DNA of 64,000 nucleotides from Promethearchaeota archaeon (GCA_029838195.1 JALGVJ010000011.1:1-64000), one strand, 5' to 3'. Numbered from the stretch's first letter, positions 5,618 through 63,257 are shown. Notes: generated by a model not told the origin, from the letters alone. Program-made: numbers and translations.

Positions 5618-5802
5618 TATAATTCGTTTCCTCTCTTAACGTTTGAATTTTTAATTGGTTTCCTCATGATTTTTAAAAAATAATGATAAATTCTCATTAC
5701 CCTCTATTTCAGATAAAACTATTTAAATGAAAAAATTGGAAATCTTGTCTTCATTCTTAAAGAGTTTGTTTAAAATCAATTCTTATTATATCCGTGAAAT
5801 TT

Positions 5803-6162
5803 TTATTGATAGCCTCGGGAAAGCGTGGGATCATTTCCTGTAAAAAATTGAATGAACGAAAAGTCCAAGAACATGCCGGCTAAAATAAGAATTAACACGG
5901 CTTCCACCATGATTTTCACGCCTTTTAAACTTCTTCCGCAAAAGATTGTTAGTAATCCCCATACGAACATTATACCACCAAAAATCAAAAGCACGTTTCC
6001 CACGAAAACAAATATAGGATTTACGATGAAACCGAATGAAAAACTCATGCGAGCACGCCATGACGCTCCGAATAAGGGATATAATACCAATAAAAACAAG
6101 GCAATACCTATGAATGTGTATTCCACCATACTTGTCGTAGAATAATGTCTTTTTCTACTCAT
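5803..6162 (-). CDS. Small 3-TM protein, VirB2/TrbC pilin-like hairpin
   Basis: 119 aa with three hydrophobic helices and a 'GGIMFVWGLLTIFCGRSLKGVKIMVEAVLILILAG' hairpin. Lies directly upstream of the ATPase-like gene. Confidence 0.6.
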   Translation of the reverse strand: MSRKRHYSTTSMVEYTFIGIALFLLVLYPLFGASWRARMSFSFGFIVNPIFVFVGNVLLIFGGIMFVWGLLTIFCGRSLKGVKIMVEAVLILILAGMFLDFSFIQFFTGNDPTLSRGYQ

Positions 6163-6221
6163 AATACTTCTTATTACTTCCTCTTTTAATTTTTATAATT
6201 ACTTCCTCCCCATGAGGAACC

Positions 6222-6330
6222 TTTATAAAGAAAAAATAGTCTTAAAAATTATTTCCCTAAAACTCTTATTTAAAGAAAAAATCCGTTTTTAATTCGGAAC
6301 AAGTCCCAACCCTATCTTTTTATTTAAATA
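6222..6330. promoter_or_regulatory. Divergent promoter region with three T-tract/TATA motifs
   Basis: Minus strand TTTTTTCTTTATAAA (6222-6236) and TTTTTTCTTTAAATA (6267-6281). Plus strand TTTTTATTTAAATA (6317-6330), 25 nt before ATG 6356. Confidence 0.7.
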
Positions 6331-6355
6331 CTTTCATGAAAAATAGTATTTTAGC

Positions 6356-8392
6356 ATGATAACTCAACCATTTATCGATCAAAATGAGGACCTTGAATTA
6401 ACTCGAATAAAGTCCATCGGAGAAAAAACAGCGGAATTCTTGAAACAAGCAGGGATTCTTGACATTAAAGACTTGGCTCAAGCTAAAAAGGCTGTCCTCA
6501 CTTCCATAAAAGGTATAGGAGAAAAAAAAGCGGTCTCACTAATTAATGAAGCTAAAAACTATTTATTGACAAGGATCCAAGAACTTGATCCAAAACAACA
6601 CGCGGACCAAGAAGAGGAAATCCTTGAGAGTGAAGAAAAAAGCATGGAAATAAATCAAGAAGAGAAGTCTTTAACAAATGAAGTTAATTTCGAGGTGCTT
6701 TCTAGAGATACCATTGAAGAAATCAAAGAAAATACGACTGACGAAAAAAGAGAGATGGAATTAATAGAAAATGGATTTGATGAAAATTTTACTGATGATT
6801 TTTTAGAAAATGAAATAACACTAAATGAAAATTCATTCGTGACTGACCTCCTTTTCAATCCTTCAACAGACCCAGTTCGAAAATCTATTGAAGAATTTCT
6901 GGAAGATGATAACAGTTCACTTCAAGAAAACCTCGAGATACCCAGTTCTACTACGTCTACTTCTAAATTAATTGAAAAACCGAATAATAAGAAACGATAT
7001 GCTAAAATTAAAACATTAAAAAAGCACCTTTCTTTTGGCAATAAAATGCCAAAATTAGAAAATTCCCTTTCCTCCATGAACACATCGCCATCTCTCTCTC
7101 AAGAGCAATCGATAAATAAAGCAACACCTCAACCGAACATTGAAAAAGATTTACTCTCTCAAGAAGAATTGGAGCTTAAAAATTTAAAACAACAAGAACA
7201 ACAAAAAATAGAAAATAAAAAAGATACTTTACAACTCACTTTAACCAATTCAACCTACGAAAAAAAACTAAAAAAAATAGAAAAAAGGCTGAACAAATGG
7301 AGATATATACTTTTCGAACCCTCCATCATGGAAGACTCAACTGATTCAAGTAAAATACAATTCTTAATGGCCAAACCCTTGCATAATGATAACACGATTC
7401 TAATACCTCTAATACTCGTGTCATTGGAACAAGACACCGGAATGGACAATACTACATATTTAGTATCAAAACATTCTGTTCGCCTAATAGATTCCTCCAC
7501 CTCTTCCAGCGATCTCATTTCATGCGATTTTAATTTCCTTTATTCTCAACAACTTGCTTTACATGAAAAAATCTTACAAGGAGATAAAAAATATATTGAA
7601 AAACTTTCCAATGCTCTGGGATTTCCCCTGAAATATAATAACATTACCATGCAACTGTATTCAAATAATAATAATGATAAAAATAAAAATAATAATAAAA
7701 AAGTGAAGATATATCCGTTTACCTTACATCTCACCAATGCGAATGTTAAAATCGCAAATAACAAGATGACTTACTGCTATAATCGTAAATATAACATGTA
7801 TTTTCACTCTTTAAATGGAAACCTTACTTCGCTGAAATCTTTTCTTGATTATTTGGAAAAAAAACTCATTGCTATACATTTCCTTGAAAAAGAAACTATA
7901 AATTTCAGGAATAAAGAGTATCTTGCTACCTTACATCGTAATCTAAAAATCACATCATGGATATCTCCGTTTATTTTCATTATGGGACTTTCATGCCTTT
8001 TTACACTGTTCTTGGAGAACATACCTTTCAAATCCCTGATCATTCTTGGAGGGGTCATGACCTTCATTTTCTATATAATACTCTTATTGGGTGTCATGAA
8101 AACTTCCTTATCTAAACGTGCATTGTTAAAAAAAACGCTACTACAACCCTATTTTTTGCGGAAACCTTTTTTGAAAAGAGAGAAAATCAGCCTTTTACAG
8201 AAGAATTTTAACAATGGTATGTTCGAACAATTCTTAAGAGAACGCTCAATTAGTAATGCATCTCAAGTATTAACTCTACTAAAGCAATTTACTCTTGACC
8301 CATACCTAAATAAAACAAAAAAACACAAAAATAAGCAGAATAATGAAGAAAAGAAAGAGGAAAATGAAAATGAAAGCAAATTTTTTGAATAA
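6356..8392 (+). CDS. Helix-hairpin-helix DNA-binding protein with two C-terminal TM helices
   Basis: N-terminal 'IKSIGEKTAEFLKQAGI..IKGIGEKKA' tandem HhH, acidic linker, two hydrophobic helices near the C-terminus. Confidence 0.75.
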   Translation: MITQPFIDQNEDLELTRIKSIGEKTAEFLKQAGILDIKDLAQAKKAVLTSIKGIGEKKAVSLINEAKNYLLTRIQELDPKQHADQEEEILESEEKSMEINQEEKSLTNEVNFEVLSRDTIEEIKENTTDEKREMELIENGFDENFTDDFLENEITLNENSFVTDLLFNPSTDPVRKSIEEFLEDDNSSLQENLEIPSSTTSTSKLIEKPNNKKRYAKIKTLKKHLSFGNKMPKLENSLSSMNTSPSLSQEQSINKATPQPNIEKDLLSQEELELKNLKQQEQQKIENKKDTLQLTLTNSTYEKKLKKIEKRLNKWRYILFEPSIMEDSTDSSKIQFLMAKPLHNDNTILIPLILVSLEQDTGMDNTTYLVSKHSVRLIDSSTSSSDLISCDFNFLYSQQLALHEKILQGDKKYIEKLSNALGFPLKYNNITMQLYSNNNNDKNKNNNKKVKIYPFTLHLTNANVKIANNKMTYCYNRKYNMYFHSLNGNLTSLKSFLDYLEKKLIAIHFLEKETINFRNKEYLATLHRNLKITSWISPFIFIMGLSCLFTLFLENIPFKSLIILGGVMTFIFYIILLLGVMKTSLSKRALLKKTLLQPYFLRKPFLKREKISLLQKNFNNGMFEQFLRERSISNASQVLTLLKQFTLDPYLNKTKKHKNKQNNEEKKEENENESKFFE

Positions 8393-8423
8393 ATGAAACT
8401 AAGAATAATTTTTTTGACTAAAC

Positions 8424-9488
8424 ATGAAAAAAAGAAAAATGATAAGCGTGATTATTGGTTTCAGCTTACTATTCATGGGTGTCTTGCAATTACCGCCAGA
8501 GAGTAAAGCTTTTTCCTCAGAAGAAATCTTGGTGGATAAGGTATTTACCTTTCACACCCCTTCCGAGGACTTGGTTAGAGCAGTTCAGTTCAAGGAAAAT
8601 AAAACCTACTACATCCGCATGGAAGTGGTGACTCCGCATGCGTGTAATATAAGCATTAAGATCAACGATACCAGCCAAGATCCTTTATACGATATTTTCT
8701 ACGCCGCATTGAGCGGAGAATCCGCTTATGGCTATGTGAAAGAAGTACCCTTCGTGGCGGCAAGAAACGGCACGCACGTGGTCATGTTTCACGTGGAATG
8801 CCTGCTCAACATGAATATTTACATTTCTATTTATCGAGCAGAAGATTTAGTGGACTTAAGCAATACAATGGCATTTGATGTCCTCAAGATTAACCAAACT
8901 TTGACCACGCATTATTTCAATCTCACGCTTCTCACGGATACCATGTACCGCTTTCATTTCAGCCGAGTTTCCACGTTTCAAGAAAATATATCATTGCACA
9001 TTTACTTGACTTTCTGGGCACGAGCACCAGATGTGAATGATACAGAATTTCTGCTATTAATTAATGAAAGCATGCCACAAATAGGTGAAACCATATCCAC
9101 GTTTTTAGGCACTGCCATTAACGGCACCTATGAATTTTGGTTTGAATTAGAGACAAATTTAATCCCTTTCAATTTTTTATACAAGGTCGTGGAAGAACGA
9201 GAAATATCAGAGGAAATCTCAGGCAATTCTACGGTTCCTATTGATAATCAATCTGTATCTAATGGGAACAATGAAACAGACGATGAGGAGGATGATGCCC
9301 CAAAAGAAGAAGAACAGCCTTCTACTAATGATACAGATACACCTAATGAAAATATCACGATACTCGAAGGAACGATACCTCCACAGATTCGAACATTATT
9401 CGCGTGGGGAACTGTTGGTTTAATCTCAACAGCAATTATAGCCTTAATTTACACGCGCAAAAGAATACCTTTAGAATTACGGACTTAA
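8424..9488 (+). CDS. Secreted, C-terminally anchored surface glycoprotein
   Basis: Signal peptide, many N-x-S/T sequons, acidic linker, C-terminal TM followed by RKR. Confidence 0.8.
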   Translation: MKKRKMISVIIGFSLLFMGVLQLPPESKAFSSEEILVDKVFTFHTPSEDLVRAVQFKENKTYYIRMEVVTPHACNISIKINDTSQDPLYDIFYAALSGESAYGYVKEVPFVAARNGTHVVMFHVECLLNMNIYISIYRAEDLVDLSNTMAFDVLKINQTLTTHYFNLTLLTDTMYRFHFSRVSTFQENISLHIYLTFWARAPDVNDTEFLLLINESMPQIGETISTFLGTAINGTYEFWFELETNLIPFNFLYKVVEEREISEEISGNSTVPIDNQSVSNGNNETDDEEDDAPKEEEQPSTNDTDTPNENITILEGTIPPQIRTLFAWGTVGLISTAIIALIYTRKRIPLELRT

Positions 9489-9640: not shown

Positions 9641-10327
9641 TTAAATTCGGCTGATTAATAGAATTAGCCTTTTCAATAGAAGTCTTATCAAACAGATTGA
9701 ATATTTTATCACGTAATAAAAGAGAAAAAGGCACCCAAATATCATAATGGAAAGAACCCATTCTTCAAATGTTTGATTCAAGAGATAAGTTGTATAAATT
9801 GCATTGGTGATGAAAAACGATATTATAACTAAAAAGAATTGGTATAATGTATATGTACCATTTTCCCCTAACGTGAGGAACACGTTTTTAATATCTACGC
9901 CACTTGGAGCCGCTCCAATAAATAATGAAATAATCAAGTATACCAAGAAAAATACCATGAGTGGCTCAAGTGAAGTAGAAAACAATATCTTCAGGCAAAG
10001 ATAGATCAAATACGAGGTAATATAAAGTGGGGCAAATGAGATCAAAAACATCTGGAAAAAGGTGATCCGCTGGTTTCTTTTAAAGCTCACGTAGCCGTGA
10101 TCATGAGCAACAAAAATATTTTTCGGCGTGACTCCTACCAGGAGAGAAATGATGTAATGGGAAAGCTCATGAATGGCCACGCCCAAAAATGACGAGCAAT
10201 ATATAAATGCCCGCAAAAGGCTACTTCTAAAATAACCAACTATTGCTTGGATGAATAGAGATGAAATGAAAATACCGATGAACATGGGCACATTGTCTAA
10301 TAAAAATATTTCTAATATAGCCATCAT
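9641..10327 (-). CDS. M50-like intramembrane zinc metalloprotease
   Basis: Polytopic, with 'AIHELSH' HExxH, 'ISFAPLY' and 'APSGVD' motifs. Confidence 0.75.
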   Translation of the reverse strand: MMAILEIFLLDNVPMFIGIFISSLFIQAIVGYFRSSLLRAFIYCSSFLGVAIHELSHYIISLLVGVTPKNIFVAHDHGYVSFKRNQRITFFQMFLISFAPLYITSYLIYLCLKILFSTSLEPLMVFFLVYLIISLFIGAAPSGVDIKNVFLTLGENGTYTLYQFFLVIISFFITNAIYTTYLLNQTFEEWVLSIMIFGCLFLFYYVIKYSICLIRLLLKRLILLISRI

Positions 10328-10460
10328 GTATTATTACTTTCTTGAGATTATTTAAAAAAAAGAACTTAAAATGAATCAACTAAAATTTTAGGAAAAAAGT
10401 TTTCATTTTAAAATTTTGATGATTTTTTTCTTTTTATACTTCTATAATTATATCTAAATC

Positions 10461-11072
10461 ATGAATGAAGCAAGTACAATTTTTAAAAAGCTTCATGAGA
10501 TTCTTGATGTATTGGAAAAATTCAAATACAACAAAGGTAAGAAGCTAAATCTTAATAAGTTAGCAAGCAGCTTGGAGATCCCCTCTAATTTACTTCCTAA
10601 AATTGCTCACCTCCTCGTGCGATTTCAAGAAGTGTTTAATTCTTTAGAAGAACATGAGCTTGAACTTGAAAATCAAGGAAATAATTATTACTTCTCTTTA
10701 ATGGAAAAAACCTTACCTGCGAGAAATAAAAATCTCTTTCCTCCTCCAAAAAGAATTGTTCTTACTGAAGATGAAGCTAACATCTTAAATGACATGATCT
10801 ATTCTTTCAAAAAAATCCGTAGAGGAGTTGGATTTGACCTATCTTCTCAAACAAATAACAAGCGGATTTTACAGCTGAATGAAAAACATCCCTATTTTTT
10901 CTTCAAAAACGGTAATGATTTGTATTATCCTTCTCAATTAGCTCTTACCTTGGGACAGAAATTGCTCATGTATAAAAAATCCCGCCGACCCTTTCATGAA
11001 TTAAAGGATTTGAATGTAAATGATATATCAATAAAAATTAGTGCATCTTCACATCAAAAAAAAAATAATTAA
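10461..11072 (+). CDS. Hypothetical protein, probably winged-helix
   Basis: 203-aa ORF with HTH-like 'LNLNKLASSLEIP'. Motif promoter at 10423-10438. Confidence 0.6.
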   Translation: MNEASTIFKKLHEILDVLEKFKYNKGKKLNLNKLASSLEIPSNLLPKIAHLLVRFQEVFNSLEEHELELENQGNNYYFSLMEKTLPARNKNLFPPPKRIVLTEDEANILNDMIYSFKKIRRGVGFDLSSQTNNKRILQLNEKHPYFFFKNGNDLYYPSQLALTLGQKLLMYKKSRRPFHELKDLNVNDISIKISASSHQKKNN

Positions 11073-11137: not shown

Positions 11138-11755
11138 ATGGAACACGAGTACTTGAAAAAAGACTTATCCCCCTATATCATTTTTAAATGTCCTTCCTGT
11201 CAAAACTTCTTGTATTTCAAGCAAGGAAAAAAGTCCAAGACCTGTACCCGCTGTAATAGACGATTTGGTCTCAAGCCTATTTTAGCTAATAAAATCATGA
11301 TAGTAAAAGGAATGACGGCGGCCGTCAATAAAGTGAAAGAATTACAGAACCGACGAGCCCTTAAAGAATTAGGAGAGGCCCCGAAACTACACGCTACCAA
11401 TCAGTATCAATTAAAACGATCATCATCATTTTTTATAGAAAATAAAAATAGTCATGAAAGTATCTCTTTTAAGAAAAAAATGAGAGATGAGGGATATAAT
11501 AAATCATTAGAAAGTAAGAAAAAAGTGAGAGATGATGGAGATCATGAATCATTAGAAACATTAACAAAACAAATGAAATTAGAACTATGGAAAATGTTCA
11601 AGACACATGGAAAATTACCAGCGCACGTTATTAACTTGATTTTTCAACACCACGACATTTCAAATAGAGAGAGAAATAAAATCCTGAGTAAATTAATCTC
11701 AGAAAAAATCGTGCTCCCTCAAAAAAATAATTATTTTATCATAAAAAATATGTAA
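11138..11755 (+). CDS. DUF1922-like Zn-ribbon protein with C-terminal wHTH
   Basis: 'YIIFKCPSCQNFLY..KTCTRCNR' CxxC pairs; SD-like GGAG upstream. Confidence 0.7.
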   Translation: MEHEYLKKDLSPYIIFKCPSCQNFLYFKQGKKSKTCTRCNRRFGLKPILANKIMIVKGMTAAVNKVKELQNRRALKELGEAPKLHATNQYQLKRSSSFFIENKNSHESISFKKKMRDEGYNKSLESKKKVRDDGDHESLETLTKQMKLELWKMFKTHGKLPAHVINLIFQHHDISNRERNKILSKLISEKIVLPQKNNYFIIKNM

Positions 11756-12306
11756 AAATAGATATTCTTTGGCAAGAACACAATTCTTGTTTTTTTTTCA
11801 AGCTCAAGTGTTTGTCATGAGTTATGAGGAGATGGAGTACAAATAAGGTCTCATCTGCTGATAAATAACCCCCCAATTGCGTTTTATTTTCGACACATAG
11901 AAAGAGCTCAGTGAACTCAAGAGTTTCACGTTCTCTTTCGTCATGAAATAGGAGTCTATGACCCAAATCTTGTAGGGAAATTTGAGAGGATATTCAAAAG
12001 GACCGCCGTAGTAATGCGTATGATCCTGGAACACACTCTTGAACTTAATAGGTGGATGATCCGACTCATCTGTTGCTTGATCTGCTCCCGAGCGATGTTC
12101 TCAGCAATGTTTTTGATTGAGGCTCTCTCATCCACTAAGAGGTCGTAGGCAAATGCCTTCATGGCCTTTTCCTTGGTGACCGGTAAACGCAAGCCATGAT
12201 CTTCAGAGAAATTCATAATAAACGGGTTTTCTTTCACGAGTAACATATTAAAATAAAGTGACATCCCTTTCTTATAAAATCGTGTAAGGCATGGGCGATA
12301 TACCAC
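11739..12306 (-). pseudogene. Frameshifted gene of unknown function
   Basis: Three overlapping minus-strand ORFs (11956-12306, 11822-12034, 11739-11966) read as consecutive pieces. The last is homologous to 18931-19200. Confidence 0.55.
11766..11853. repeat. Diverged 88-bp direct repeat, copy 1 (copy 2 at 18982-19069)
   Basis: Ungapped alignment at offset 7216: gaacacaa..gctcaagtg..atgaggagatg..aagg..ctca. Confidence 0.85.
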
Positions 12307-12469
12307 CTTTTTTACACGCAGATCTCTCTCATATCGAAATAGAGGTGCTATGATTTATAAAACTTCCGAGATACATTAAATTGTCGAACTTTAGATTAAA
12401 ATATAGCTATTTAAATTATTCATTTATTTAGAATTTCTCCTAATTTTCATAATAAAATCACTTAATAAG

Positions 12470-12499
12470 TTATGAATAGTTATTCATAATATTTAAATA
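12470..12499 (+). promoter_or_regulatory. Palindromic operator plus TATA box
   Basis: TTATGAATA-GT-TATTCATAA perfect inverted repeat (12470-12489), then TTTAAATA (12492-12499). Confidence 0.75.
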
Positions 12500-12597
12500 C
12501 TAGAATCATCTAATAATACTTGAAGAAATTAAAATTAAATCAAGTAACTTGAAGTTACTTGAAAAAATTAAATTTAAATTAAAAAAAATAGGAGGAG

Positions 12598-12816
12598 ATG
12601 AATATGCCAAGAGGAGATGGAACAGGTCCTACTGGTTTAGGACCCAAGACGGGACGTGCGTTAGGTTATTGCGCAGGATATAATAGTCCTGGTTTTACTA
12701 AAGGTCCAGGTCAGGGATTGGGTCTTGGAAGAGGTCTTGGAAGAGGTCTTGGAAGAGGTTCTGGAAGAGGATTCGGAAATGGTCGGGGCAGAAACCGTAG
12801 AACGTGGAGATATTAG
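12598..12816 (+). CDS. DUF5320 family protein
   Basis: MPRGDGTGPxGLGPxTGRxLGYCAGY signature, GRGL repeats. GGAGGAG SD suggests the start at 12604. Confidence 0.9.
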   Translation: MNMPRGDGTGPTGLGPKTGRALGYCAGYNSPGFTKGPGQGLGLGRGLGRGLGRGSGRGFGNGRGRNRRTWRY

Positions 12817-13131
12817 TAGATTAAACAATGCCGATCATCAACTATTTTTTTTACATTATTTTTTATATTTTTTGATTCTTGCTACTATTTTATTCTATTT
12901 TAGGTTTTTTAATTTTTTTTAAATATTCTTTAAATGATTTCAGCATTAGTTATGCTATATTATTAAACAAGCACATCATGAAAAGATTTAAATCTTGTTA
13001 TAAAAATGCTTGATGCTCAAACAAAACTTAAAGATAAATTTCTTTTATCTATTTTATTTAAAGTAATAAATTTTAGAGAAAATAGTCATTAAAAGTATTT
13101 CTTAATTTTTATAATAAATTAATCTCATGGA

Positions 13132-13161
13132 TTATGAATGATTATTCAGAATCCTTAAATA
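13132..13161 (+). promoter_or_regulatory. Second copy of the palindromic operator plus TATA box
   Basis: TTATGAATG-AT-TATTCAGAA followed by CTTAAATA at the same spacing as at 12470. Confidence 0.7.
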
Positions 13162-13231
13162 GGTAGATTAACTAATATTACATGAAAAAATTAAAAAATA
13201 TAATAATAAAAAAGGAGATGATGGAATAAAA

Positions 13232-13642
13232 ATGCCAAGAGGAGATGGAACAGGCCCAGCTGGCTTGGGGCCAATGACAGGTCGTGGTTTGGGTTATTGC
13301 GCAGGTTATAGTACTCCCGGATATACGAAGGGTCCTGGTCTTGGTTGGGGTCGCGGCTGGTGGGGTCGAGGTCGAGGTCTTGGTTGGGGCCGAGGATGGT
13401 GGGGTCGAGGATGGTGGGGTCGAGGATGGTGGAGATGGGGTGGTTATTATCCCTATGCTGCTCCAGTAGCAGTAACTGCTCCAGTAGTAGCACCATATAC
13501 CACACCAGTGGCTCTAAATCCTACTGACCAATTAGCGATGCTAAAACAAGAAAAAGAATACTTGGAATCCAATTTAAAAGGGATCCAAAACGCATTAAAA
13601 GATATTTCAAAAAAGATTGAAGAATTAGAACAAGAAAAATAA
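13232..13642 (+). CDS. DUF5320 family protein
   Basis: Same signature, GRGWW repeats, C-terminal coiled coil. Confidence 0.9.
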   Translation: MPRGDGTGPAGLGPMTGRGLGYCAGYSTPGYTKGPGLGWGRGWWGRGRGLGWGRGWWGRGWWGRGWWRWGGYYPYAAPVAVTAPVVAPYTTPVALNPTDQLAMLKQEKEYLESNLKGIQNALKDISKKIEELEQEK

Positions 13643-13797
13643 TTTTTATTTTTTTTTTCCTTGATATATCCATCTTATAATTAAAGGAAAAAATTTTAGT
13701 GATTAGAAGCGAACTTTAGTTTGTAAGGAATTTTTTTTATTCTTATTTTATTAAAATTTTAAGCAGTATTTTCAATTATTTTATTAGATTAATATTC

Positions 13798-13992
13798 GTA
13801 GATGATATAAAAGAGAGTCAAGAGGATTATTTAAAGGCAATTTATCTCATTTCTAAATCCAAAAAACGGGGCTGGGTGAACAATTCGGAGATCGCAAGAG
13901 TTATGAACGTTCAACCCTCTTCTGTTACAGAAATGCTGTATAAATTAAAAAAGAAAGGTTAATTTTTTGGAATCCCCGGAAAGCAATAAGGT
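13798..13992 (+). pseudogene. DtxR/MntR-family metal-dependent repressor fragment
   Basis: Manual translation gives ESQEDYLKAIYLISKSKKRGWVNNSEIARVMNVQPSSVTEMLYKLKKKG*, which continues LIFWNPRKAIR after a frameshift. No start codon. Confidence 0.85.
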
Positions 13993-14155
13993 CTCAAATC
14001 ACTCATTTAAGAAATGTTTATTAAAAAATTCATTTGAGATTTTCGAGAAATATTAATTTTGATATTGTTTTTTAAAAAAATTTCGAAAAAAAAATTTTTA
14101 AAGATAGAATTTATATTTTTTATAAGACAAATTTAATATTTTATTAAAATATATA

Positions 14156-51687: not shown

Positions 51688-51795
51688 GATAAAAATAATA
51701 TTTTGATATCTTAGTTCTTTTATCTTTAAAATTCAACGGATCTTTAAAAAGAAAAAATTTATTTTAGCTTCTAAGACTAATTTCTAAAATAATTT

Positions 51796-52896: not shown

Positions 52897-52988
52897 GACC
52901 TATCTGTTTTATCCTCATATTTAAAGAAAAAATCAGTATTAGGGAAAAATCATTTTTATTTAAATAAATTTAATGAGTAGTTAAGAGG

Positions 52989-53624
52989 ATGATGGAAAAT
53001 GTAAATTATATTGAAAAAAAATTTCATGAAAACAATGTTAATGGAAATTTTATAAACCTTGGTGCGACTGATTTCAACCAAGAAATAGATAAACATGATG
53101 TAATAAATGTTCTATTACGTTATTTCTCTATTCCTGTCCTTAGAGCTTCTTCTAACCGCATGAAAACAGCAATGGTATCATTTTTAGCTCGAATTCTTAA
53201 TAAAAATAAATCATGGATTCGTGATTCTATAAACGAATTTTTAGAAAACTGCCAATCGTTTAAAGAGATTCTAAAACAAGAATTAAAAAAGTTGAAATTG
53301 GACGGATGCTTCGACCCCATCGAAACGCACATTAACCTCTTGAATCGCTTTCTCGAACAACTTCATTCCTTTACAAATGCGTTCGATATGGAACGTGCCA
53401 AGATAAACATGTTAATCCTCATTGATAAATTAGACGCTAAATCTAAGTTCATGCCTCTTTTTAACCTAAACATTCATCTTGCTTTTTTGATATATATTAC
53501 CGATGTTAAGGATTACGAGGTTTTGAGAGCTAATATTTCTCCTCTTAAGTTAGAAAATATTTGCTACATGACAAATTGTAAAGAAAAACAATTGTTTCAA
53601 TTAAAGGCGATCCTTTCTCCTTAA
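52989..53624 (+). CDS. Paralog of 48982-49572 (cyclin/TFB-repeat-like C-terminus)
   Basis: 'LDAKSKFMP..HLAFLIYITD..LKLENICYMTNC' aligns with 'LDQKNYCP..QLALILFVTD..ILQVNIRNLCKT'. Confidence 0.6.
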   Translation: MMENVNYIEKKFHENNVNGNFINLGATDFNQEIDKHDVINVLLRYFSIPVLRASSNRMKTAMVSFLARILNKNKSWIRDSINEFLENCQSFKEILKQELKKLKLDGCFDPIETHINLLNRFLEQLHSFTNAFDMERAKINMLILIDKLDAKSKFMPLFNLNIHLAFLIYITDVKDYEVLRANISPLKLENICYMTNCKEKQLFQLKAILSP

Positions 53625-53691: not shown

Positions 53692-54447
53692 CTATGGCAA
53701 ATAAAAGGTAATGCCTTGATCAGTAATTTCAAATTTTAACGAAATCTTTTTCTCATTATAATGGATGATTAACCTTCTAAGCCTACCATGTGAATGAGCT
53801 TCCATGAGATGAGGTGGAAAAAGCTCAAGAGTCACTCCCTTTATCCTCTCAAATAAAGAGGAATAAAAAACATTATCCTGAGAAGTAGTCGGATTCGTAG
53901 AAAACTCATGAATGAGAAATACAAGAATATTTTTAAATGAACAATAAAATAAGAGAGGCACCAATTGCTTTTCAAAAAAATCATTAATAATAACTTCTCT
54001 TATATTCATGTCCTCTTCCATGGATAAACGCAATCGCAAGTGATGAGAGATGTTATCCACGACCATACATTTGAGATAAGGAATATTAGGCAAGTATTTT
54101 TCAAGAAGTCCTTGAAAAAGTAATTCTTGTTTTTCATATGAAAGGAGGACAGAACGAGCCGGAAAAATGAAAAAGCGCTCATGAAGGGATGAAGATTTAT
54201 TATTATAAAATATTTCTAATTGTTTGAGTCGCTTAACGGGAAAATGTTCGGAAGCTTGAATCCACGCGCACGCATGACGTGATCCGAGTAAATGATAGAC
54301 TAAATAGAGAACAAGATTAGTTTTTCCGCTTCCTGCTTTCCCCTTTACATGAATGACATTTTCTCTTTTTAAAATAAGAGAAATAATTTCCAAGAGGTCT
54401 TTTTCATTCAAAATCTTTAAACTTCTTTTTTCTTTTTTTCGAGCCAT
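53692..54447 (-). CDS. RadB/Rad51-paralog-like RecA-fold ATPase
   Basis: GKAGSGKT, WIQASEHFPVKRL, VVDNISHHLR, FEITDQGI; no N-terminal HhH. Confidence 0.8.
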   Translation of the reverse strand: MARKKEKRSLKILNEKDLLEIISLILKRENVIHVKGKAGSGKTNLVLYLVYHLLGSRHACAWIQASEHFPVKRLKQLEIFYNNKSSSLHERFFIFPARSVLLSYEKQELLFQGLLEKYLPNIPYLKCMVVDNISHHLRLRLSMEEDMNIREVIINDFFEKQLVPLLFYCSFKNILVFLIHEFSTNPTTSQDNVFYSSLFERIKGVTLELFPPHLMEAHSHGRLRRLIIHYNEKKISLKFEITDQGITFYLP

Positions 54448-54763
54448 TATTATTTTCTCTTAAAGCTTGTAAAACCCTTTTCTCAAGATTATCATGAGAT
54501 CTGTTAGGCAAGATAATAGTATTATCACGCTTGGAAGAATTGTTTTCCGCATTTTTAAGGTTCATGGCTAATAACATTAAGGGTAACCATTTATCCGTTC
54601 CATCAGAAGAATTTCCTTTTATTTTCAAGTGTTTTTTGTATTTCACGAACAGGAAATAGACGATAATGACGCACGTGATATAAATGACATATTGGGGATT
54701 GGTTTGAATGAACACGATTAAGAACATTATCAAGATTAGATAGAATAAACATTTAAATGTCAT
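54404..54763 (-). CDS. Small 2-TM membrane protein overlapping the RadB-like gene
   Basis: ATG 54763 has an AGGAGG SD; ATG 54805 abuts the promoter motif (54808-54822). Confidence 0.65.
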   Translation of the reverse strand: MTFKCLFYLILIMFLIVFIQTNPQYVIYITCVIIVYFLFVKYKKHLKIKGNSSDGTDKWLPLMLLAMNLKNAENNSSKRDNTIILPNRSHDNLEKRVLQALRENNNGSKKRKKKFKDFE

Positions 54764-55384
54764 TTTTTTGATACTACCTCCTGTATAGTATTTAAATACA
54801 TTCATTCTATATAAAGAAAAAAAGTTCTATCACGCAAATAGAAGAAAAAATACCCAATTGAACAATGTTTATTTTCTTATGAGAAATTGTATTAAAGAAA
54901 AGATTTTATAGAATTGGTTTAATTTAATATAGATCAATCAGTTTTTGGAAATATTTTTTATTCAATATGCCAAAAAAATGGAAAAAATAAAAGAAAATTA
55001 TTATTAAACCGTTTTCCTTAAGGATTCAAAAAAGCTCATATTATTAAAATTCTAATATTTCACGATGTCTTTCTACACCTAATATTTTGAGAGAAGAACC
55101 CAAATTCTCACCAAGATCATCAAATCAAGAAGAGAAGAATTACATTAAGAAGCCTAATTAATTCTGGATTTTGGAAGAGTGTATATTTATATTTAAGAAA
55201 TGAATTAATGATTAACACATTTAAAAGAATAGCTTTAATTTAAAAAATTTTGATCTCAAAACAAGCCCAAAAGTGATCAACACTTTTTGTGAGATTGATT
55301 TTTTGCTAAATATTGTTCATTTATTAGGACATTAAATGAAATAATTCCATCATAAATATAAAGGATATTAAAAATGAGGTCAAA

Positions 55385-55401
55385 ACCGTAAAGTTTAAAA
55401 G
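55385..55401 (+). promoter_or_regulatory. Canonical BRE-TATA promoter of the tfb paralog
   Basis: ACCGTAAAG-TTTAAAAG, i.e. a purine-rich BRE with no T-tract. Confidence 0.6.
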
Positions 55402-55459
55402 GCACACTCCCCCCAGTATATTTCCTTAAGAAAAAATGTAAAATGAGTTGTAATAAAAA

Positions 55460-56851
55460 ATGGCATCTAAAACTAATAAAAATTTGGTTTTTACGGAATT
55501 CTTAACTTGTGATATTTGTGGCTCGACTGATATTGTCGAAACAATGGAAGGTTATACCTGTAGAAATTGCGGTATTGTACTCAACATGCAACGTTTAGAA
55601 TATCACAGGCCATATAACGAAGCTTGTTTACAGCACGCACCTCTTAATTCAACCCAAATTGGAACTAAACAAGAACGCTTGAATCATACAAGATCTCCCC
55701 ATTTACAGAGATTAAATAAACTTCATTCTATTTCCTCGATATCAAATGAAAAATTTATAATTGAAACCGCCAGAAAAGAAATCTCTCGTCTTTTAGAGAT
55801 TCTTGGTTATTCTACTTCGGAGATGAATCAAGATATCTTGAAAAATGTTAAAACTATTTGGCAAAAAATAGAAAAAGGAACAAAATTTAGAAATGTTGAG
55901 AAATTAATCCCTGCCGTGATCTACGTTTATTTTAAGATTAAATGCCTCTTCATTAATTGGTCCAAACTTTTAGAGAATTCTAAACTCTCGAAAGAAGAAT
56001 TTCGCGCTGCTTTAATGACCGTCATTCGATTTCTAGACCATGAGGTGAGAATTGCTTATCTCAAGGGAACGAGAAAACGATATTGCGAGCGAAAAATTTT
56101 ACGAATAGCAGAAGAATTTGGTTTGGGAATGGACTTTTATCATCAAGCCGTGGCGCTCATGTATAAATTATGGAACATTATTCAAAATACGAAAGAAGAT
56201 GTCATCGTGGGAGTAACATGCAGTCTCATTGCTCTCACATCCGCTTATCGAGAGAAAATTTCTGTTTCTAAAATATGCTCTTATGTAGGCATTCAGATGT
56301 CCACTGTTCAAAGTCAGGTAAAAAAACGCATCATTGAGAGGTTCAAGATTCCCGGATTTATAAGTCTTGTTAAATCTGCAAACCTCATTGAAAAAATCTT
56401 AAAAAAATTGGGCATTTTAAAAGAAAAACTCACTCATCGGAGACAGAAAAAAATTCATGATGATGAGAAACAAGCTGAAGAGAAACAAGATATCAAAAGA
56501 AATTCGGAGATTAGTTTAGAAGAAGAGGAGAAGGATGCCATTAGAATAATTAAATCATTTGAATTAGAATTCATGGTTTCAAAAAATAATAACGCCAAAA
56601 AGGCATGTTATATTTTAAAGAGCAGTAATGGAAAACACGGATATTTATTGTTACTTGATGAAAACGATAAAAAACAAGGTCATTTTCAAGGCTTTAAAAA
56701 ACGATTTCAGAAAAAATCAATTAGATTAGTAAATCATCAAACAAAATTTTTTAATAATCCCTTGATACAAGTTAATGCGATTTTAAAATTTAAAACGGGT
56801 AAAGGACCTCCTGAAAAAGAACATATAATTTCATTTCACTTCATCAGATAA
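55460..56851 (+). CDS. tfb: Divergent transcription factor B (TFB/TFIIB) paralog with C-terminal extension
   Basis: CDICGS..YTCRNCG Zn ribbon; two cyclin repeats ('LIPAVIYVYFK', 'ISVSKICSYVGIQMSTVQSQVK'). Confidence 0.85.
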   Translation: MASKTNKNLVFTEFLTCDICGSTDIVETMEGYTCRNCGIVLNMQRLEYHRPYNEACLQHAPLNSTQIGTKQERLNHTRSPHLQRLNKLHSISSISNEKFIIETARKEISRLLEILGYSTSEMNQDILKNVKTIWQKIEKGTKFRNVEKLIPAVIYVYFKIKCLFINWSKLLENSKLSKEEFRAALMTVIRFLDHEVRIAYLKGTRKRYCERKILRIAEEFGLGMDFYHQAVALMYKLWNIIQNTKEDVIVGVTCSLIALTSAYREKISVSKICSYVGIQMSTVQSQVKKRIIERFKIPGFISLVKSANLIEKILKKLGILKEKLTHRRQKKIHDDEKQAEEKQDIKRNSEISLEEEEKDAIRIIKSFELEFMVSKNNNAKKACYILKSSNGKHGYLLLLDENDKKQGHFQGFKKRFQKKSIRLVNHQTKFFNNPLIQVNAILKFKTGKGPPEKEHIISFHFIR

Positions 56852-57168: not shown

Positions 57169-57319
57169 ATTCTTTTTTAGGAGCGTATAATTTTTAATAA
57201 TTATTTTAAATGATTATTAGGTAACCATCAACTTTCAAATGATTTTTTTAAAAGAAATATCGGGAACTATTTTTTTAACTATTTTTTATTTAAATATGAT
57301 TGATGATCTTATTTTATTG

Positions 57320-61074: not shown

Positions 61075-61564
61075 GGTAAATTCTAATCTTTAAAAATTAT
61101 CTTGCCCGTTAATTCTTATATTAACCTTTATTAAAATGATTTATAAATGTTTTCTTCTATTATTTTTTCTATATTTTTTTTATTATATTTTCTATTTTCT
61201 TTTTATAAAAACTTCTTATAATTCTTCACGGTAACCAAAAGAATAAAATTTAAGCGCCATTTTGATTAGGAGATTTTTTAAATTTCAAAAAAGAGAGAAA
61301 GAAGAAAAAGATAAAAAATAATGAATTTCTTAATGAAGATCATATAAAAAATAGATTCCTTCTAATAACGGATAATTCGAAAGATTAAATAAAAATATAC
61401 TTGATAGAAACTCATTATTTTGATATATTGTTTTGTTATTCTATTTATGGAAAAAATTTTCTTTAAAATGGAACATCTAATTTTTTTTCATTTAAATAAT
61501 AAGAGTAAAAAAAAGATTCAATAAAGGAATAATGAAGAAAAAATAAAATAAAAAGGGAATTATC

Positions 61565-61786
61565 ATGATATTAGATTATTATTCTCGTGTTTTAGATGGT
61601 GTAGAATTTCTCATTGCCGTTGGCTCTCTCGTGGGCCTTTTTGGTGTTATCATTGGATTTATTTTATTCATTTTTGGTTCTACTAGATACCGTTTACGTA
61701 TTTTATTTTTTATTATTATTAGTTGTCTATTATTAATCGCATGTGGATGGGCCACTGGTTTACGTTATTTTCATATTCGAATATAA
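61565..61786 (+). CDS. 2-TM hairpin protein (pilin-like), paralog of 45431-45643
   Basis: EFLIAVGSLVGLFG..CGWATGLRYF. Motif promoter at 61483-61498. Confidence 0.75.
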   Translation: MILDYYSRVLDGVEFLIAVGSLVGLFGVIIGFILFIFGSTRYRLRILFFIIISCLLLIACGWATGLRYFHIRI

Positions 61787-62432
61787 ATCAATTTTTTATT
61801 TATATAGATTTATCGTCTTAGTATTATAGATCTAAATTCATTAATAATTCTTCCTGAGTCCGTGGATAAGATGAGTATTAAATTAAAAAATACAAATAAA
61901 TCTACTAAAAAATCATCATTAAATGTTAAACATTCTTTCTCAGAAAAAAATAAAACAAGAAAAAACCAAGAGAAAATTTTTTTTTTAGACTTAACAATAA
62001 TTTTTGAAACTTGTCGCTATTATATTGAAGGGAAGAAAATAAAAGCATCTAATATTAAATATTTAATCCGATTACAAAATTCTCCTCGAAAAAAGAATCT
62101 GCCCCCTTTTTTTAATTATTTACTTCATGAATTTTTAAATAATAGAATAAAATCCAGATAATTCTTTTTTTAAAATTTGCTTAATTTGATTTTTAATTTC
62201 TTTTGGAGCATTACTAAATTCCGAGCCAATTGAAAAATCAATTATTTTCTTAAATTCTTCTCTTTTCTTTATTTTTTTAATTTTTTCTATATTCTTCTTT
62301 TTAATAGAAGAAGAATAGATAAGAATATATTGAGAAAAAGCAAAAATTTCCGCCTAATTGCAAGCTGACAAGAGTGTTTAAAAATGGGAACATTCAAATT
62401 GAATATACGCCTACTAAATTTGACCGAAAAAA

Positions 62433-62645
62433 GTGGAAAATGAACAAGTTCAGGAGTTATTGAACAAATTAATCAAAGAAACTTTAAAAGGACCAAAAGA
62501 ATGGACCATTCCGAGCTCGTCAGAAGAAGGTAAATATTATACAGTAAAAGTAGATGCTACCGGGAAATGGTCCTGCACATATCCTCAATTTATTTATCGT
62601 AAAAAAGAGTGCAAGCACATCGTGGCGTGTAAAAAAGAATATTAA
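62433..62645 (+). CDS. Stand-alone SWIM Zn-finger protein (second Cys replaced by Tyr)
   Basis: 'SSSEEGKYYTV..WSCTYPQF..ECKHI'. Confidence 0.7.
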   Translation: MENEQVQELLNKLIKETLKGPKEWTIPSSSEEGKYYTVKVDATGKWSCTYPQFIYRKKECKHIVACKKEY

Positions 62646-62679
62646 TTGTATTTATTATTTTTTTTATTACTCATGCTAA

Positions 62680-62850
62680 TTAAGCATGTATCACGGGCCT
62701 AATTAAGGGAGAACTTTTTTTTGATTTAAATTGTTTCGAGCATTTATGATCCATCTCTCGCTTTTTTCCACAATGATCGCCCCCTAATTTTTGACACGTG
62801 CGGCTTGTTTTTTCATAGTACGTGCAGGTAGCATTATATTTACATTTCAT
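62680..62850 (-). CDS. Unannotated 56-aa Cys-rich protein
   Basis: MKCKYNATCTYYEKTSRTCQKLGGDHCGKKREMDHKCSKQFKSKKSSPLIRPVIHA; GAGGGT SD; motif promoter at 62935-62949. Confidence 0.7.
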   Translation of the reverse strand: MKCKYNATCTYYEKTSRTCQKLGGDHCGKKREMDHKCSKQFKSKKSSPLIRPVIHA

Positions 62851-63257
62851 TTATCTTAATACCCTCTTTTTTTTAATTCTATTTTAATCATTAATAATTG
62901 CAATATAAAATGCAATAGTAATTATTCATGAATTTATTTAAAGGAAAAATTTTTTTAAAAACGTGCTCCGTGAAAGGATTTCTCAATACAATGAATTAAT
63001 CTTGCTTTTTTTCTTACTTTTTATTATTTTAGTTTAATAAAAAGCATAAATTAATAACAGGAAGGAAAAAAAAGGAGGGAGGAGATTGAAAAAGATGGAC
63101 TAAAAAAAATAATATTATTAAGATATGAAAATATTAATTTTAATTTTAAATTTTTAAAAATTTTGCGATGGAGAATTTCTTTTTATTTAAATAAACAAGA
63201 TGATAAATATATATAATCTAATTAAAAAATAATTAAATTTAAGAACTACAGGAAAAA

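Follow-up and report, generated by a model that had tools for sequence, protein, structure and literature searches.

A T-tract promoter class private to paralogous gene islands of an Asgard archaeon, and a divergent TFB as its candidate reader

Genes and T-tract promoters of the window

The window, i.e., the whole stretch of 64,000 nucleotides analyzed (on contig C89), belongs to an Asgard archaeon, and about 30 of its genes or operons have an unusual T-tract promoter in common. Proceeding along the sequence, a promoter with one mismatch (5720-5734, minus strand) precedes, with a leader of 102 nt, the gene for a 1303-aa HerA/CedB-like ATPase (1706-5617, minus), and two promoters (6222-6236 and 6267-6281, minus) precede a 119-aa gene (5803-6162, minus). 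The one at 6316-6330 (plus) lies 25 nt from the ATG of a 678-aa HhH protein (6356-8392), followed by 8424-9488; that at 10349-10363 (minus, two mismatches) lies 21 nt from the ATG of an M50B-like membrane protein (9641-10327, minus), and that at 10424-10438 (plus) 22 nt from the ATG of 10461-11072, after which comes a DUF1922 Zn-ribbon gene (11138-11755). A divergent pair is then found, whose minus member (19264-19278) precedes 18931-19200 (minus) and whose plus member (19305-19319) is 22 nt from the ATG of 19342-19857. On the minus strand, promoters precede a ThiF/E1-like gene (21238-21252; gene 20301-21158), a 365-aa gene (22619-22633, exact 15-mer; gene 21432-22529), an extra XPF/ERCC4 nuclease (27888-27902, two mismatches, ATG at 22 nt; gene 27125-27874) and the operon 30812-31462/29907-30815/29474-29902 (31523-31537, exact 15-mer).

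A second divergent pair has its minus member (32922-32936) 20 nt from the ATG of a 423-aa gene and its plus member (32977-32991) before a 100-aa ORF and a Hel308-like helicase (33406-36015). Two further minus-strand promoters serve an SF2 (Hef-like) helicase (38296-38310, 24 nt to the ATG; gene 36052-38271) and a giant protein of 1612 aa (43311-43325; gene 38403-43241), and plus-strand ones precede an extra RadA-like recombinase (43588-43602, exact 15-mer; gene 43658-44914), a 105-aa Zn-ribbon gene (45013-45027, two mismatches; gene 45079-45396), 90% of whose orthologs at other loci carry the motif, and an OB-fold gene (45707-45723, the loose variant TTTTTTG-TTTAAAAG; gene 45798-46745). In the next divergent pair, the minus member (47494-47508) is 21 nt from the ATG of 46789-47472 and the plus member (47572-47586, exact 15-mer) precedes a 181-aa gene and a small GTPase (47638-48823). 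Promoters follow at 48902-48916 (plus), before 48919/48982-49572 (plus), and at 51743-51757 (minus, two mismatches), before a 678-aa gene (49651-51687, minus).

Another divergent pair comprises a minus member (52918-52932, exact 15-mer) 21 nt from the ATG of an extra XPG/FEN-like nuclease (51796-52896) and a plus member (52952-52966) 22 nt from the ATG of 52989-53624. The promoter at 54808-54822 (minus) precedes 54404-54805 (minus) and a STAND/AAA-like gene (53692-54447, minus). The one at 57282-57296 (plus) has no ORF of at least 60 codons downstream, and might serve either a small ORF or a transcript running antisense to the 1214-aa gene at its 3' end. Finally, promoters precede a 73-aa two-helix protein (61484-61498, plus; gene 61565-61786), 61862-62161 (61792-61806, plus), a 56-aa ORF (62935-62949, minus) and a 67-aa ORF (63179-63193, plus, with a palindromic overlapping match at 63184-63198, minus). 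The last promoter of the block starts within the window (63995-64000, plus; in full C89:63995-64009) and precedes a 411-aa gene (C89:64130-65365); host-type genes begin at about 66.5 kb, beyond the block.

The motif TTTTTTMTTTAWATA at up to one mismatch has 27 matches in the window against 1.82 +/- 1.33 expected from dinucleotide-preserving shuffles, and none of 100 shuffles reached 27. The exact 15-mer TTTTTTCTTTAAATA occurs six times (6267-, 22619-, 31523-, 43588+, 47572+ and 52918-; 0.04 expected from the shuffles), at all the positions that an earlier note on this DNA had given. This note had reported about 28 recurring sites, 22 of which match TTTTTTMTTTAWATA at up to one mismatch (some with an offset of 1 nt) and five at two mismatches (10349-, 27888-, 45013+, 47494- and 51743-), the one at 45708+ being a single loose variant (TTTTTTGTTTAAAAG); it had overlooked those at 19264-, 19305+, 27065-, 61792+, 63184- and 63995+. 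Its observation that divergent gene pairs carry one site per strand was borne out, e.g., at 52918-/52952+. Within the block, all sites with up to one mismatch fall outside genes, 21 of them upstream of a called gene in the sense orientation and seven elsewhere between genes; beyond the block, 80 of 213 are intragenic. The distance from the end of the TATA box to the ATG is 20-25 nt at 6316+, 10349-, 10424+, 19305+, 27888-, 32922-, 32977+ (counting from a second in-frame ATG), 38296-, 47494-, 52918- and 52952+.

A promoter class confined to paralogous islands

Archaeal promoters normally carry an A/purine-rich BRE just upstream of the TATA box. The element T6-(C/A)-TTTAWATA is a genuine archaeal promoter class, with a normal TATA box and an initiator, in which the non-template strand carries a run of T where the BRE would adjoin TATA. 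The analysis of 425 sites pooled from 83 loci revealed that an ORF starts within 150 nt in the facing direction in 73% of cases and in the opposite one in 26%; the distance from TATA to ATG is most often 21 nt (54 sites), 111 sites falling at 20-29 nt and a second group at 40-59 nt, and a pyrimidine-A signal is found at the expected start position. The orientation and spacing proposed for the motif thus hold in the pooled sites. The TATA boxes are near-perfect, the register of the T-tract is fixed, with one C/A base before TATA and about 1.4 bits per position, and in 1.27 Mb the combination T6-TATA occurs 383 times, whereas A6-TATA is found 24 times and the reversed control 62 times. A divergent upstream neighbour is present at 123 of 288 motif-bearing genes (43%).

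In the genome, 24 of the 34 exact sites and 54 of the 241 sites with up to one mismatch (in 4.5 Mb) fall within three diverged paralogous blocks, C89 (the window), C49 and C50; the density of the latter sites is about 4.8 per 10 kb here and about 0.43 elsewhere in the genome. At least five T in six positions stand upstream of gene-oriented TTTAWATA in 21 of 26 cases in the block versus 21 of 460 elsewhere (Fisher p = 8.6e-21), where this flank is mildly A-rich. The host RadA-2, FEN1, XPF, Hef, Hel308 and RPA genes examined lack the motif. The idea of a distinct promoter class, served by an initiation complex whose specificity differs, therefore survives the comparison with housekeeping and host repair genes, before which the motif is absent. 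The candidate regulon that had been proposed stands as a separate promoter class but not as a dispersed regulon, since the sites mark contiguous paralogous islands; nor is the motif the promoter that this organism uses in general. Such islands number three in this genome and from zero to six per genome within one Asgard family, and the T-tract element is the private promoter of these 30-60-kb gene islands, which belong to a single family of Asgard archaea of the Loki type. The estimated contamination of the MAG is 7.9%, given which its three blocks might not all derive from one cell; in other genomes several island copies lie on a single contig. The GC content of the block matches that of the host (33%).

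The genes under T-tract promoters include a repair set (extra divergent RadA, XPF, FEN/XPG-like and Hel308-like proteins, a Hef-like helicase and an OB-fold protein). Besides these there are the DNA-translocating ATPase of HerA/CedB type, a GTPase pair, a giant protein of surface type, small membrane proteins with two helices and numerous proteins of unknown function. Taken as a whole, this gene content suggests a DNA-exchange/recombination programme.

The island TFB and the possible readers of the T-tract

A divergent TFB paralog of full length is encoded in each of the three blocks. In the window it is a 463-aa protein (55460-56851, plus), in which a Zn ribbon and a shortened B-reader are combined with two cyclin folds, and which extends about 140 aa further at the C-terminus. 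The family profile matches TFIIB/TFB in the PDB (E 3e-5), and the AF2 core (pLDDT about 90) matches 1ais_B, the P. woesei TFB (TM 0.80), and 1d3u_B (TM 0.78) over about 204 columns; the cysteines of the Zn ribbon do not vary across the family. It is known that TFB contacts the BRE, and sets the direction of transcription, through a helix of its second cyclin/HTH domain (PMC4581349, PMC7289017). This helix reads (V/I)TEVT(L/I)R(S/N)R in all eight host TFBs versus MST(I/V)(Q/H)xQV in the island family (MSTVQSQVKK, residues 280-289, in the protein of the window), so that Ser/Gln/Gln stand where canonical TFBs have Val/Arg/Arg. The gene's own promoter (55388-55401, plus) has a purine BRE, GTAAAG, and the TATA box TTTAAAAG, then GCACACTCC, with no T-tract; this layout is kept in orthologous loci, only 1% of 83 having a T-tract before the gene. 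Purine-rich BRE-TATA sequences had been described before the tfb, Hhe, saccharopine dehydrogenase and 1214-aa genes; the first is conserved, while the others could not be convincingly confirmed.

The earlier note had listed tfb merely among these exceptions; we consider it instead the island's own gene and the likely, candidate reader of the T-tract. According to the reading we lean towards, the T-tract is recognized by the island TFB, which activates an island whose genes are additional ones for recombination/repair and DNA translocation. Its gene would be transcribed from the canonical promoter, presumably by a host TFB; the product would join the host TBP at the near-perfect TATA boxes of the islands, the rewired Ser/Gln/Gln helix would read the T-tract (an A-run on the opposite strand) and so orient transcription, and RNA polymerase would be recruited by the Zn ribbon that the protein has kept. 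About 30 transcription units would thus be switched on together, akin to the regulon of an alternative sigma factor, and the pair of TFB and T-tract probably works like such a factor and its promoters. We infer the co-induction of the island genes, the role of TFB as reader and the purpose of the islands. The truncated B-reader suggests that the island TFB might not be able to support initiation alone.

Comparative data bear on this reading. The TFB family is found in 35 of 45 genomes of one family and in none of 155 elsewhere in the phylum; family and motif clusters co-localize in numerous genomes (G001, G004, G009, G011, G142, G199, G202 and G164), and the motif density around the TFB-like gene is 3.0 per 10 kb (80 loci). 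Genomes with the family have 269 motif versus 124 control matches, and those without it 91 versus 68. This co-occurrence of motif clusters with an altered-helix TFB lends comparative support to the proposed initiation complex of different specificity. Of the island genes, the TFB-like one shows the most universal conservation (83 of 83 loci, by construction), and co-occurrence with it is co-occurrence with every conserved island gene, so that another island protein or a host TFB could read the T-tract. T-tract clusters without a nearby TFB-like gene (G142:C3 and G202:C7), and small ones in two genomes that yielded no family member (G145:C59 and G154:C136), fit trans action or incomplete assemblies, and also independence from the island TFB. 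Changes in the helix are not neatly matched by changes in the motif: in a 21-member TFB clade Q is changed to H, with an adjacent basic residue, and some members retain many standard sites.

We would assign a minor, though real, chance to a promoter class that is genuine and island-specific and yet is read by a host TFB paralog, another island protein or a TBP-adjacent activator, the TFB-like protein being a trans co-activator (as Sulfolobus TFB3) or a competitor. Besides the orphan clusters, the imperfect co-variation and the truncated B-reader, the eight canonical TFBs of the host and the several small Zn-ribbon proteins conserved in the islands, themselves candidate readers, speak for it. 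Against it, all eight host TFBs retain the V/R/R helix, expected to favour the usual BRE, the T-tract sits exactly at the BRE position, and the TFB-like protein, present at every locus by construction, has kept its Zn ribbon and the entire core that binds TBP and DNA, with invariant helix substitutions. It is distinctly less probable that the T-tract works through DNA shape or chromatin, a rigid poly(dA:dT) excluding archaeal histones or aiding TBP bending and so making a strong constitutive promoter for any TFB. Such tracts do play a role of this kind in eukaryotic promoters, and the island TATA boxes are near-perfect; however, a shape effect should be indifferent to strand, at odds with the 383 versus 24 occurrences of T6 and A6, and neither the fixed, information-rich register nor the absence of the element from the host's other genes agrees with it. 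As for the possibility that AT-richness alone produces the motif, or that an oligo-T terminator happens to abut the TATA box of the next gene, the genome is AT-rich and the archaeal termination signal is oligo-T, but this explanation is refuted by the shuffles (1.8 expected versus 27 observed), by a reversed-pattern control six-fold rarer, by the 43% of sites lying between divergent genes, where nothing terminates, by the strong orientation and the 21-nt peak, and by the lack of the motif in the rest of an equally AT-rich genome; we give it practically no credit.

A different issue concerns the nature of the islands. The blocks might be integrated mobile elements (e.g., conjugative or DNA-transfer ones) or their domesticated remnants, the TFB and T-tract being the element's expression system rather than a host stress programme; we regard this as less likely than not, and it is compatible with the mechanism proposed above. 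It would account for the zero to six copies per genome, for the presence of the TFB family in only 35 of the 45 genomes and the failure to find it in several 97-99% complete ones, for internal stop codons in some copies, for the three diverged blocks and for their extra divergent repair genes and HerA/TrwB/CedB-like ATPase; moreover, Asgard viruses are known to carry TFB genes. However, no tyrosine integrase was found in or near the blocks and no tRNA gene in the window, the TFB family had no match in 2.9 million IMG/VR contigs, ten block proteins searched gave no PHROG match, the GC content equals that of the host, and the block with both its flanks is collinear in two species of one genus (87-93% identity). 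In the TFB tree, copies group by genome and genus, which points to vertical descent with local duplication.

Comparison with known systems

A close parallel is the DNA-damage response of Sulfolobales, where the TFB3 paralog, Orc1-2 and an upstream promoter element activate Ups pili, the Ced DNA importer and repair genes. There as here, a TFB paralog under an ordinary promoter would be devoted to a discrete DNA-exchange/recombination gene set, whose promoters carry a distinctive T-containing element near BRE/TATA, and a HerA/CedB-like ATPase is among the proposed targets here. Sulfolobus TFB3 is a truncated TFB that cannot substitute for TFB1 and acts in trans beside it (PMC7289017), whereas the island TFB retains both cyclin folds and the HTH; the targets of TFB3 are dispersed host genes rather than contiguous duplicated islands. 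The cell-cycle regulon of S. acidocaldarius TFB2 also has a full-length TFB paralog serving a specific transcriptional programme, the candidate role here; TFB2 promoters have TATA/BRE similar to those of TFB1 with a different spacing (bioRxiv 10.64898/2026.09.06.749720), whereas the islands replace the BRE by a complement-type T-run, alongside an altered recognition helix.

In haloarchaea, TFB/TBP paralogs act as alternative general factors conferring some promoter specificity (PMC7289017), with genome-wide overlapping regulons and subtle promoter differences; unlike these, the island factor gene is physically linked, one to one, with a cis-element that is sharply distinct and restricted to the island of the gene. 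The TFB homologs of viruses (WyrdV1 and JinchiV1 of Asgard archaea; rudiviruses) likewise belong to an accessory unit and presumably redirect the host RNA polymerase, with no matching promoter class reported for them in the literature examined; the islands differ from them in that virus hallmark genes were not found, IMG/VR yielded no match to the family and the position in the chromosome is stable. Finally, alternative sigma factors of bacteria and those encoded by phages share with the proposed system a paralogous initiation factor whose HTH is altered, a different upstream anchor (-35 versus BRE) and a gene block that is turned on, and the HTH2 of TFB is structurally equivalent to sigma region 4 (PMC4581349). 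Sigma factors belong to another domain of life and the archaeal system depends on TBP; beyond a proposed deep homology, the likeness is thus one of working logic rather than of family.

The T-tract promoter and its distribution in the genome

The window belongs to a Loki-type Asgard MAG of the Promethearchaeota (G000: 4.52 Mb in 94 contigs, 33.5% GC, 96.6% complete), and the earlier note had read in it about 28 copies of a promoter in which an oligo-T run stands where the purine-rich BRE is normally found (T6-(C/A)-TTTAWATA, hereinafter the T-tract promoter). The exact 15-mer TTTTTTCTTTAAATA is indeed present at the six positions claimed for it, against an expectation of 0.04, and TTTTTTMTTTAWATA occurs, with at most one mismatch, 27 times in the window versus 1.82 +/- 1.33 times in dinucleotide-preserving shuffles. 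Most of the 28 sites stood: 22 lie within one mismatch and five have two mismatches, the one at 45708(+) being a loose variant only; six additional sites were found in the window. None of the sites of the block, i.e. the contiguous gene stretch carrying these promoters, is intragenic, and about a dozen of them end 20-25 nt before an ATG, as had been proposed.

The exact 15-mer occurs 15 times and the degenerate pattern 34 times in the whole genome. Fifteen of these 34 sites fall at 6-64 kb of the contig bearing the window (C89), three at C49:14-24 kb and six at C50:44-78 kb. When up to one mismatch is allowed, 28 of the 241 sites of the genome are located in C89:5.7-64 kb and one in the other 48 kb of the same contig, the motif density reaching about 4.8 per 10 kb inside the block versus about 0.43 elsewhere. 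Likewise, a gene-oriented TTTAWATA is preceded by at least five T out of six bases in 21 of 26 cases in the block versus 21 of 460 elsewhere (Fisher p = 8.6e-21), and outside the block its upstream flank is mildly A-rich, matching the expectation for a canonical BRE. With only 34 sites genome-wide and A-biased flanks of the host TATA boxes, the idea that the T-tract is the general promoter of this organism can be rejected. As for a host promoter reference, a de novo EM search ended in an uninformative motif, and the regions upstream of 15 tRNA genes were too heterogeneous in sequence. ARAGORN in default mode detected just 15 tRNA genes in this 96.6%-complete genome, a low count that is consistent with many intron-containing tRNAs.

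The behavior of the element was analyzed on a pooled set of 425 sites, taken from all three G000 blocks and from 80 loci of other genomes. An ORF of at least 60 codons starts within 150 nt downstream of 73% of the sites versus 26% in the opposite direction. The distance between the end of the TATA box and the ATG exhibits a sharp peak at 21 nt (54 sites, with 111 at 20-29 nt), which, judging from the sequence, would be the geometry of leaderless mRNAs, and a second group of 128 sites at 40-59 nt, probably corresponding to leadered ones. The TATA element is that of a canonical archaeal promoter, in which it lies about 25 nt before the start, TTTAWATA ending 21-25 nt before the ATG of leaderless genes. 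The BRE is not purine-rich: positions -7 to -2 are T at frequencies of 0.87-0.99, the same positions elsewhere in the genome being A-biased, and the canonical archaeal BRE is enriched in A (review PMC7289017). A pyrimidine at +20 and an A (0.71) at +21 after the TATA end conform to a pyrimidine-purine initiator, a signal confounded with the ATG of the leaderless genes, and a purine is preferred 5-6 nt past the TATA box.

The T-run might be thought of as the terminator of the preceding gene; this is not so, because 43% of the T-tract genes have a divergent upstream neighbor. One might also suppose that the tract acts purely via DNA shape or histone exclusion, a role which is disfavored by its strand specificity: in 1.27 Mb, T6-TATA was counted 383 times versus 24 for A6-TATA and 62 for the reversed pattern.

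The regulon envisaged by the earlier note did not hold in a dispersed form, in that, outside the blocks, the 33 sites lying sense-upstream of a gene show no spacing peak at 21 nt, and the genes behind them have no closer relationship to block genes than randomly drawn host genes. An extension to the repair genes of the host can also be discarded, given that the host's own copies (RadA-2, RadB-like, FEN1, XPF, Hef, Hel308, and RPA) are devoid of the motif. A look-alike with two mismatches, ATTTTTATTTATATT, lies about 79 nt upstream of host RadA-1 (G000:C1, 158331-159332(-)); it may be due to chance or may tie a host gene to the island factor.

The island TFB and its altered recognition helix

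The block harbors, at 55460-56851(+), a gene coding for a divergent TFB paralog of 463 aa (the island TFB). As a single sequence, this protein gives a sub-threshold Pfam match to the TFIIB Zn ribbon (E 0.0011) and no match to PF00382; PF08271 is present in some members of its family, which embeds at least 77 Asgard proteins. The family profile matched cyclin repeat 1 of TFIIB/TFB in the PDB (E 3e-5) and recovered the canonical TFBs from other genomes (E 1e-8 to 1e-11). The Zn-ribbon cysteines C17, C20, C34, and C37 do not vary among 35 sequences, and the AlphaFold model obtained from the family alignment shows a beta-hairpin at residues 25-34 and a helical core at residues 100-320, with pLDDT about 90. 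According to Foldseek, this two-cyclin core superposes on 1ais_B (TM 0.80, rmsd 3.7, about 204 columns) and 1d3u_B (TM 0.78), both representing the P. woesei TFB from TBP-DNA complexes, and the model also superposes on yeast (E 2e-7) and human TFIIB.

G000 possesses eight canonical TFB paralogs (on C69, C38, C23, C22, C28, C6, C26, and at C49:142.5 kb) and a single TBP gene (C53). The B-reader/B-linker of the island family carries RPYN versus the (EW)RAF type of the host TFBs, in a segment that is about 18 residues shorter than theirs and conserved inside the family. The recognition helix is present (model helix 280-292, MSTVQSQVKK); this last helix of cyclin repeat 2 reads MST(I/V)(Q/H)xQV in the family versus (V/I)TEVT(L/I)R(S/N)R in all eight host TFBs. 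In TFIIB/TFB co-crystals, the base-contacting residues of the recognition helix are the Val and the first Arg, and the island TFB helix appears to lack these canonical Val/Arg contacts with the BRE. It is this helix that is inserted into the major groove immediately upstream of the TATA box, reads the BRE, and sets the direction of transcription (PMC4581349, PMC7289017).

A clade of the family (loci L079, L069, L073, L059, L092, L054, L046, L045, L033, L039, L038, L051, L060, L034, and L070) bears MSTIH(R/K)QVE(R/K) in place of MSTIQxQVKK. Two subclades within it show fewer strict 15-mers and upstream regions dominated by TTTT(T)CC-TTT words, while a third has kept the standard motif; hence a co-variation between helix and motif is suggested by two subclades and contradicted by the third. 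The earlier idea that the proteins encoded at 48982-49572 and 52989-53624 are TFB cores without a Zn ribbon found no support (hhalign probability 0.1%). Short paralogs consisting of the TFB core only (about 235-250 aa, without Zn ribbon) do occur inside some blocks (G009:C35:110265-110915, G142:C5:200171-200821, and G000:C50:54865-55056) and could compete for TBP or the promoter without recruiting the polymerase.

The gene for the island TFB does not, as a rule, share the promoter of its neighbors, a T-tract preceding it in 1% of 83 loci. Its upstream region is conserved across genera and consists of a purine BRE, GAAAAG(G) or GTAAAG, followed by TTTAAAA(A/G). A GCAAACTCC(TTCC)-type box comes directly after the TATA box, and the motif TTTCTTAG lies near the expected start (both at 55388-55459 in the window and in the orthologs of loci L022-L101); the leader contains the Shine-Dalgarno sequence AGTGATC. 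These conserved boxes resemble an operator on which a regulator would act to control the factor gene. Because this promoter is of the conserved purine-BRE type and almost never a T-tract, we suggest that the island TFB is made by means of a host TFB and would then activate the island.

Gene content of the block and its conservation in other genomes

On the basis of Pfam assignments, the repair genes of the block code for an extra RadA with HhH domains, an XPF/ERCC4 nuclease, an XPG/FEN-like nuclease, a Hel308-like helicase, and an OB-fold protein, besides a second, Hef-like SF2 helicase. These repair proteins are additional, divergent copies: the RadA shares 43% identity with two other RadA genes, the corresponding values being 64% for XPF, 32% for FEN, and 30% for Hel308. 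The block also contains HhH and Zn-ribbon proteins, a ThiF/E1-like enzyme, an M50B-like membrane protein, a giant protein of 1612 aa, a small GTPase with its partner gene, and many proteins without any Pfam match. By its language-model features, a 1303-aa protein falls in with ATPases of the HerA/DUF87/TrwB type; one of the clusters matched bears the name DNA import protein CedB, which we take as a lead only to a kinship with CedB.

About 30 of the approximately 41 transcription units of the block carry a T-tract promoter. Two stretches are free of the motif, one at 11900-19000 (DUF5320 and a 1515-aa DUF4011/AAA_11-12/MTES_1575 helicase-nuclease) and the other at 23400-29400 (three DUF169 paralogs and a saccharopine-dehydrogenase-like gene), and both give the impression of having been inserted later, with genes whose promoters are ordinary and SD-led; among the other units, a T-tract is missing from, for instance, the TFB-like gene and the 1214-aa gene. 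A perfect T-tract promoter at 57282-57296(+) has no ORF of at least 60 codons downstream and is directed into the 3' end of the 1214-aa gene, located on the opposite strand; its product might be a small or antisense RNA. Rightward of about 65.4 kb, the genes appear to be of the ordinary host type (SLOG, CLC channel, threonine synthase, Rag-type GTPases, and NrdD). The two other blocks of G000 (C49:~5-32 kb and C50:~21-78 kb) harbor orthologs that are 37-90% identical and the same promoter.

The pairing of promoter and factor recurs outside G000. Motif clusters with the TFB-like gene inside or adjoining were found in relatives (G001:C102, G004:C286, G009:C35, and G011:C47), and in the most contiguous genomes (G142:C5, with seven exact sites in 28 kb, G202:C9, with eight in 41 kb, G199:C21, with five in 23 kb, and G164). 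In the 80 loci (1.27 Mb), which were picked by homology to the TFB-like protein alone, the motif density is 3.0 per 10 kb versus 0.49 for the reversed control. The conserved neighborhood comprises the M50B-like protein (58 loci), the giant protein (54), a STAND/AAA-like ATPase (50), the SF2 helicase (39), RadA-like (37), Hel308-like (23), the Zn-ribbon protein (20), FEN-like (12), and small, putative two-helix proteins of about 73 aa (17), with T-tract frequencies that range from 55 to 90% among its lead genes. The ~73-aa family, whose members include 61565-61786 and 45431-45643 in the window and C49:15826-16059, has a T-tract promoter on 72% of its members.

The TFB family was found in 35 of the 45 sampled genomes of one taxonomic family, with 0-6 copies per genome, and in none of the 155 genomes that represent 24 other families of the phylum. 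Motif versus control matches are 269 versus 124 in genomes with the TFB family and 91 versus 68 in seven genomes without it. No motif clusters were found in G139, G120, and G005, which lack the TFB; small ones exist in two of the seven TFB-less genomes (G145:C59 and G154:C136), and the expectation that clusters are wholly absent there thus holds only in part. Moreover, a dense cluster of 10 sites in 15 kb (G142:C3:46000-61500, locus L106) has neither a TFB-like gene nor homologs of the window block genes, and encodes TPR, SMODS-like, CarboxypepD_reg-domain, and unknown proteins. Because of this cluster, the promoter class may serve further gene sets in trans; clusters without a local TFB-like gene fit such an action, yet they are the main loose end.

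Origin of the blocks, proposed mode of action, and known systems

The blocks could be either resident or mobile. A mobile element would account for the patchy, multi-copy distribution (0-6 copies, 35/45 genomes, three diverged blocks in G000), the stop codons in some copies, the extra copies of core repair genes, and the conjugation/Ced-type ATPase, and virus-borne TFBs offer a precedent. Against a recent mobility, no integrase lies near the blocks, the PF00589 matches being confined to C86 and C56; tRNA genes are absent from the window, the left border of the block being beyond the contig end; the GC content is host-like; and in two species (G009 and G142) block and flanks are collinear at the same place with 87-93% identity. 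In a quick tree, the TFB copies cluster by genome or genus, which seems to indicate a mostly vertical descent of the family, and two old lineages are common to G000 and its congener. The search of IMG/VR yielded no relative of the TFB family and ten block proteins gave no PHROG match, which speaks against recent mobility and also led us to reject a viral origin. We therefore read the blocks as long-resident accessory islands, duplicated and lost now and then, for which an ancient mobile origin is possible.

The island TFB, together with the host TBP, would read the T-run, for which Gln residues facing the A-run would be chemically plausible, and would recruit RNA polymerase via its Zn ribbon despite the altered B-reader. 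The island might in this way be expressed as one unit, perhaps for DNA exchange or recombination. We can speculate, giving the idea slightly less than an even chance, that this is an Asgard TFB switch resembling a sigma factor, in which the BRE helix was re-specified from A/purine to oligo-T, and that the resulting orthogonal code insulates a self-contained, duplicating DNA-exchange/recombination island, possibly a domesticated DNA-transfer element, from the eight host TFBs. If true, Asgard archaea would possess a natural orthogonal promoter/factor pair. The pairing of element and factor also makes the specificity of TFB for the BRE directly testable, there being three residues or six bases to swap. 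The island itself, with second copies of RadA, XPF, FEN, and Hel308 and a CedB-like ATPase, is unexplored, and the Asgard lineage is the presumed source of the eukaryotic transcription and recombination machineries.

Full-text searches of the literature turned up no description of an oligo-T BRE or of the island TFB family; the choice of promoters by alternative TFBs is already accepted in principle. Bacterial alternative sigma factors and the haloarchaeal TFB/TBP networks are mechanistic analogues, and so is the cell-cycle regulon of Sulfolobus TFB2, whose promoters have a similar BRE and a different spacing (bioRxiv 10.64898/2026.09.06.749720). The DNA-damage regulon of TFB3 in Sulfolobales is among the closest analogues in the mode of working; however, TFB3-type activators are truncated TFBs without the DNA-binding cyclin/HTH core that work only alongside the main TFB, whereas the island TFB is predicted by its model to have a complete two-cyclin core. 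For an accessory unit bearing its own TFB, the closest precedent is represented by virus-encoded TFBs. In haloarchaea and in Sulfolobus TFB2/TFB3, as described, the cis-elements differ subtly or the factor acts indirectly; the pairing in the island is unusually clean, with a sharply distinct upstream element co-localizing, in dozens of genomes, with one TFB paralog that bears changes at conserved positions of its recognition helix.
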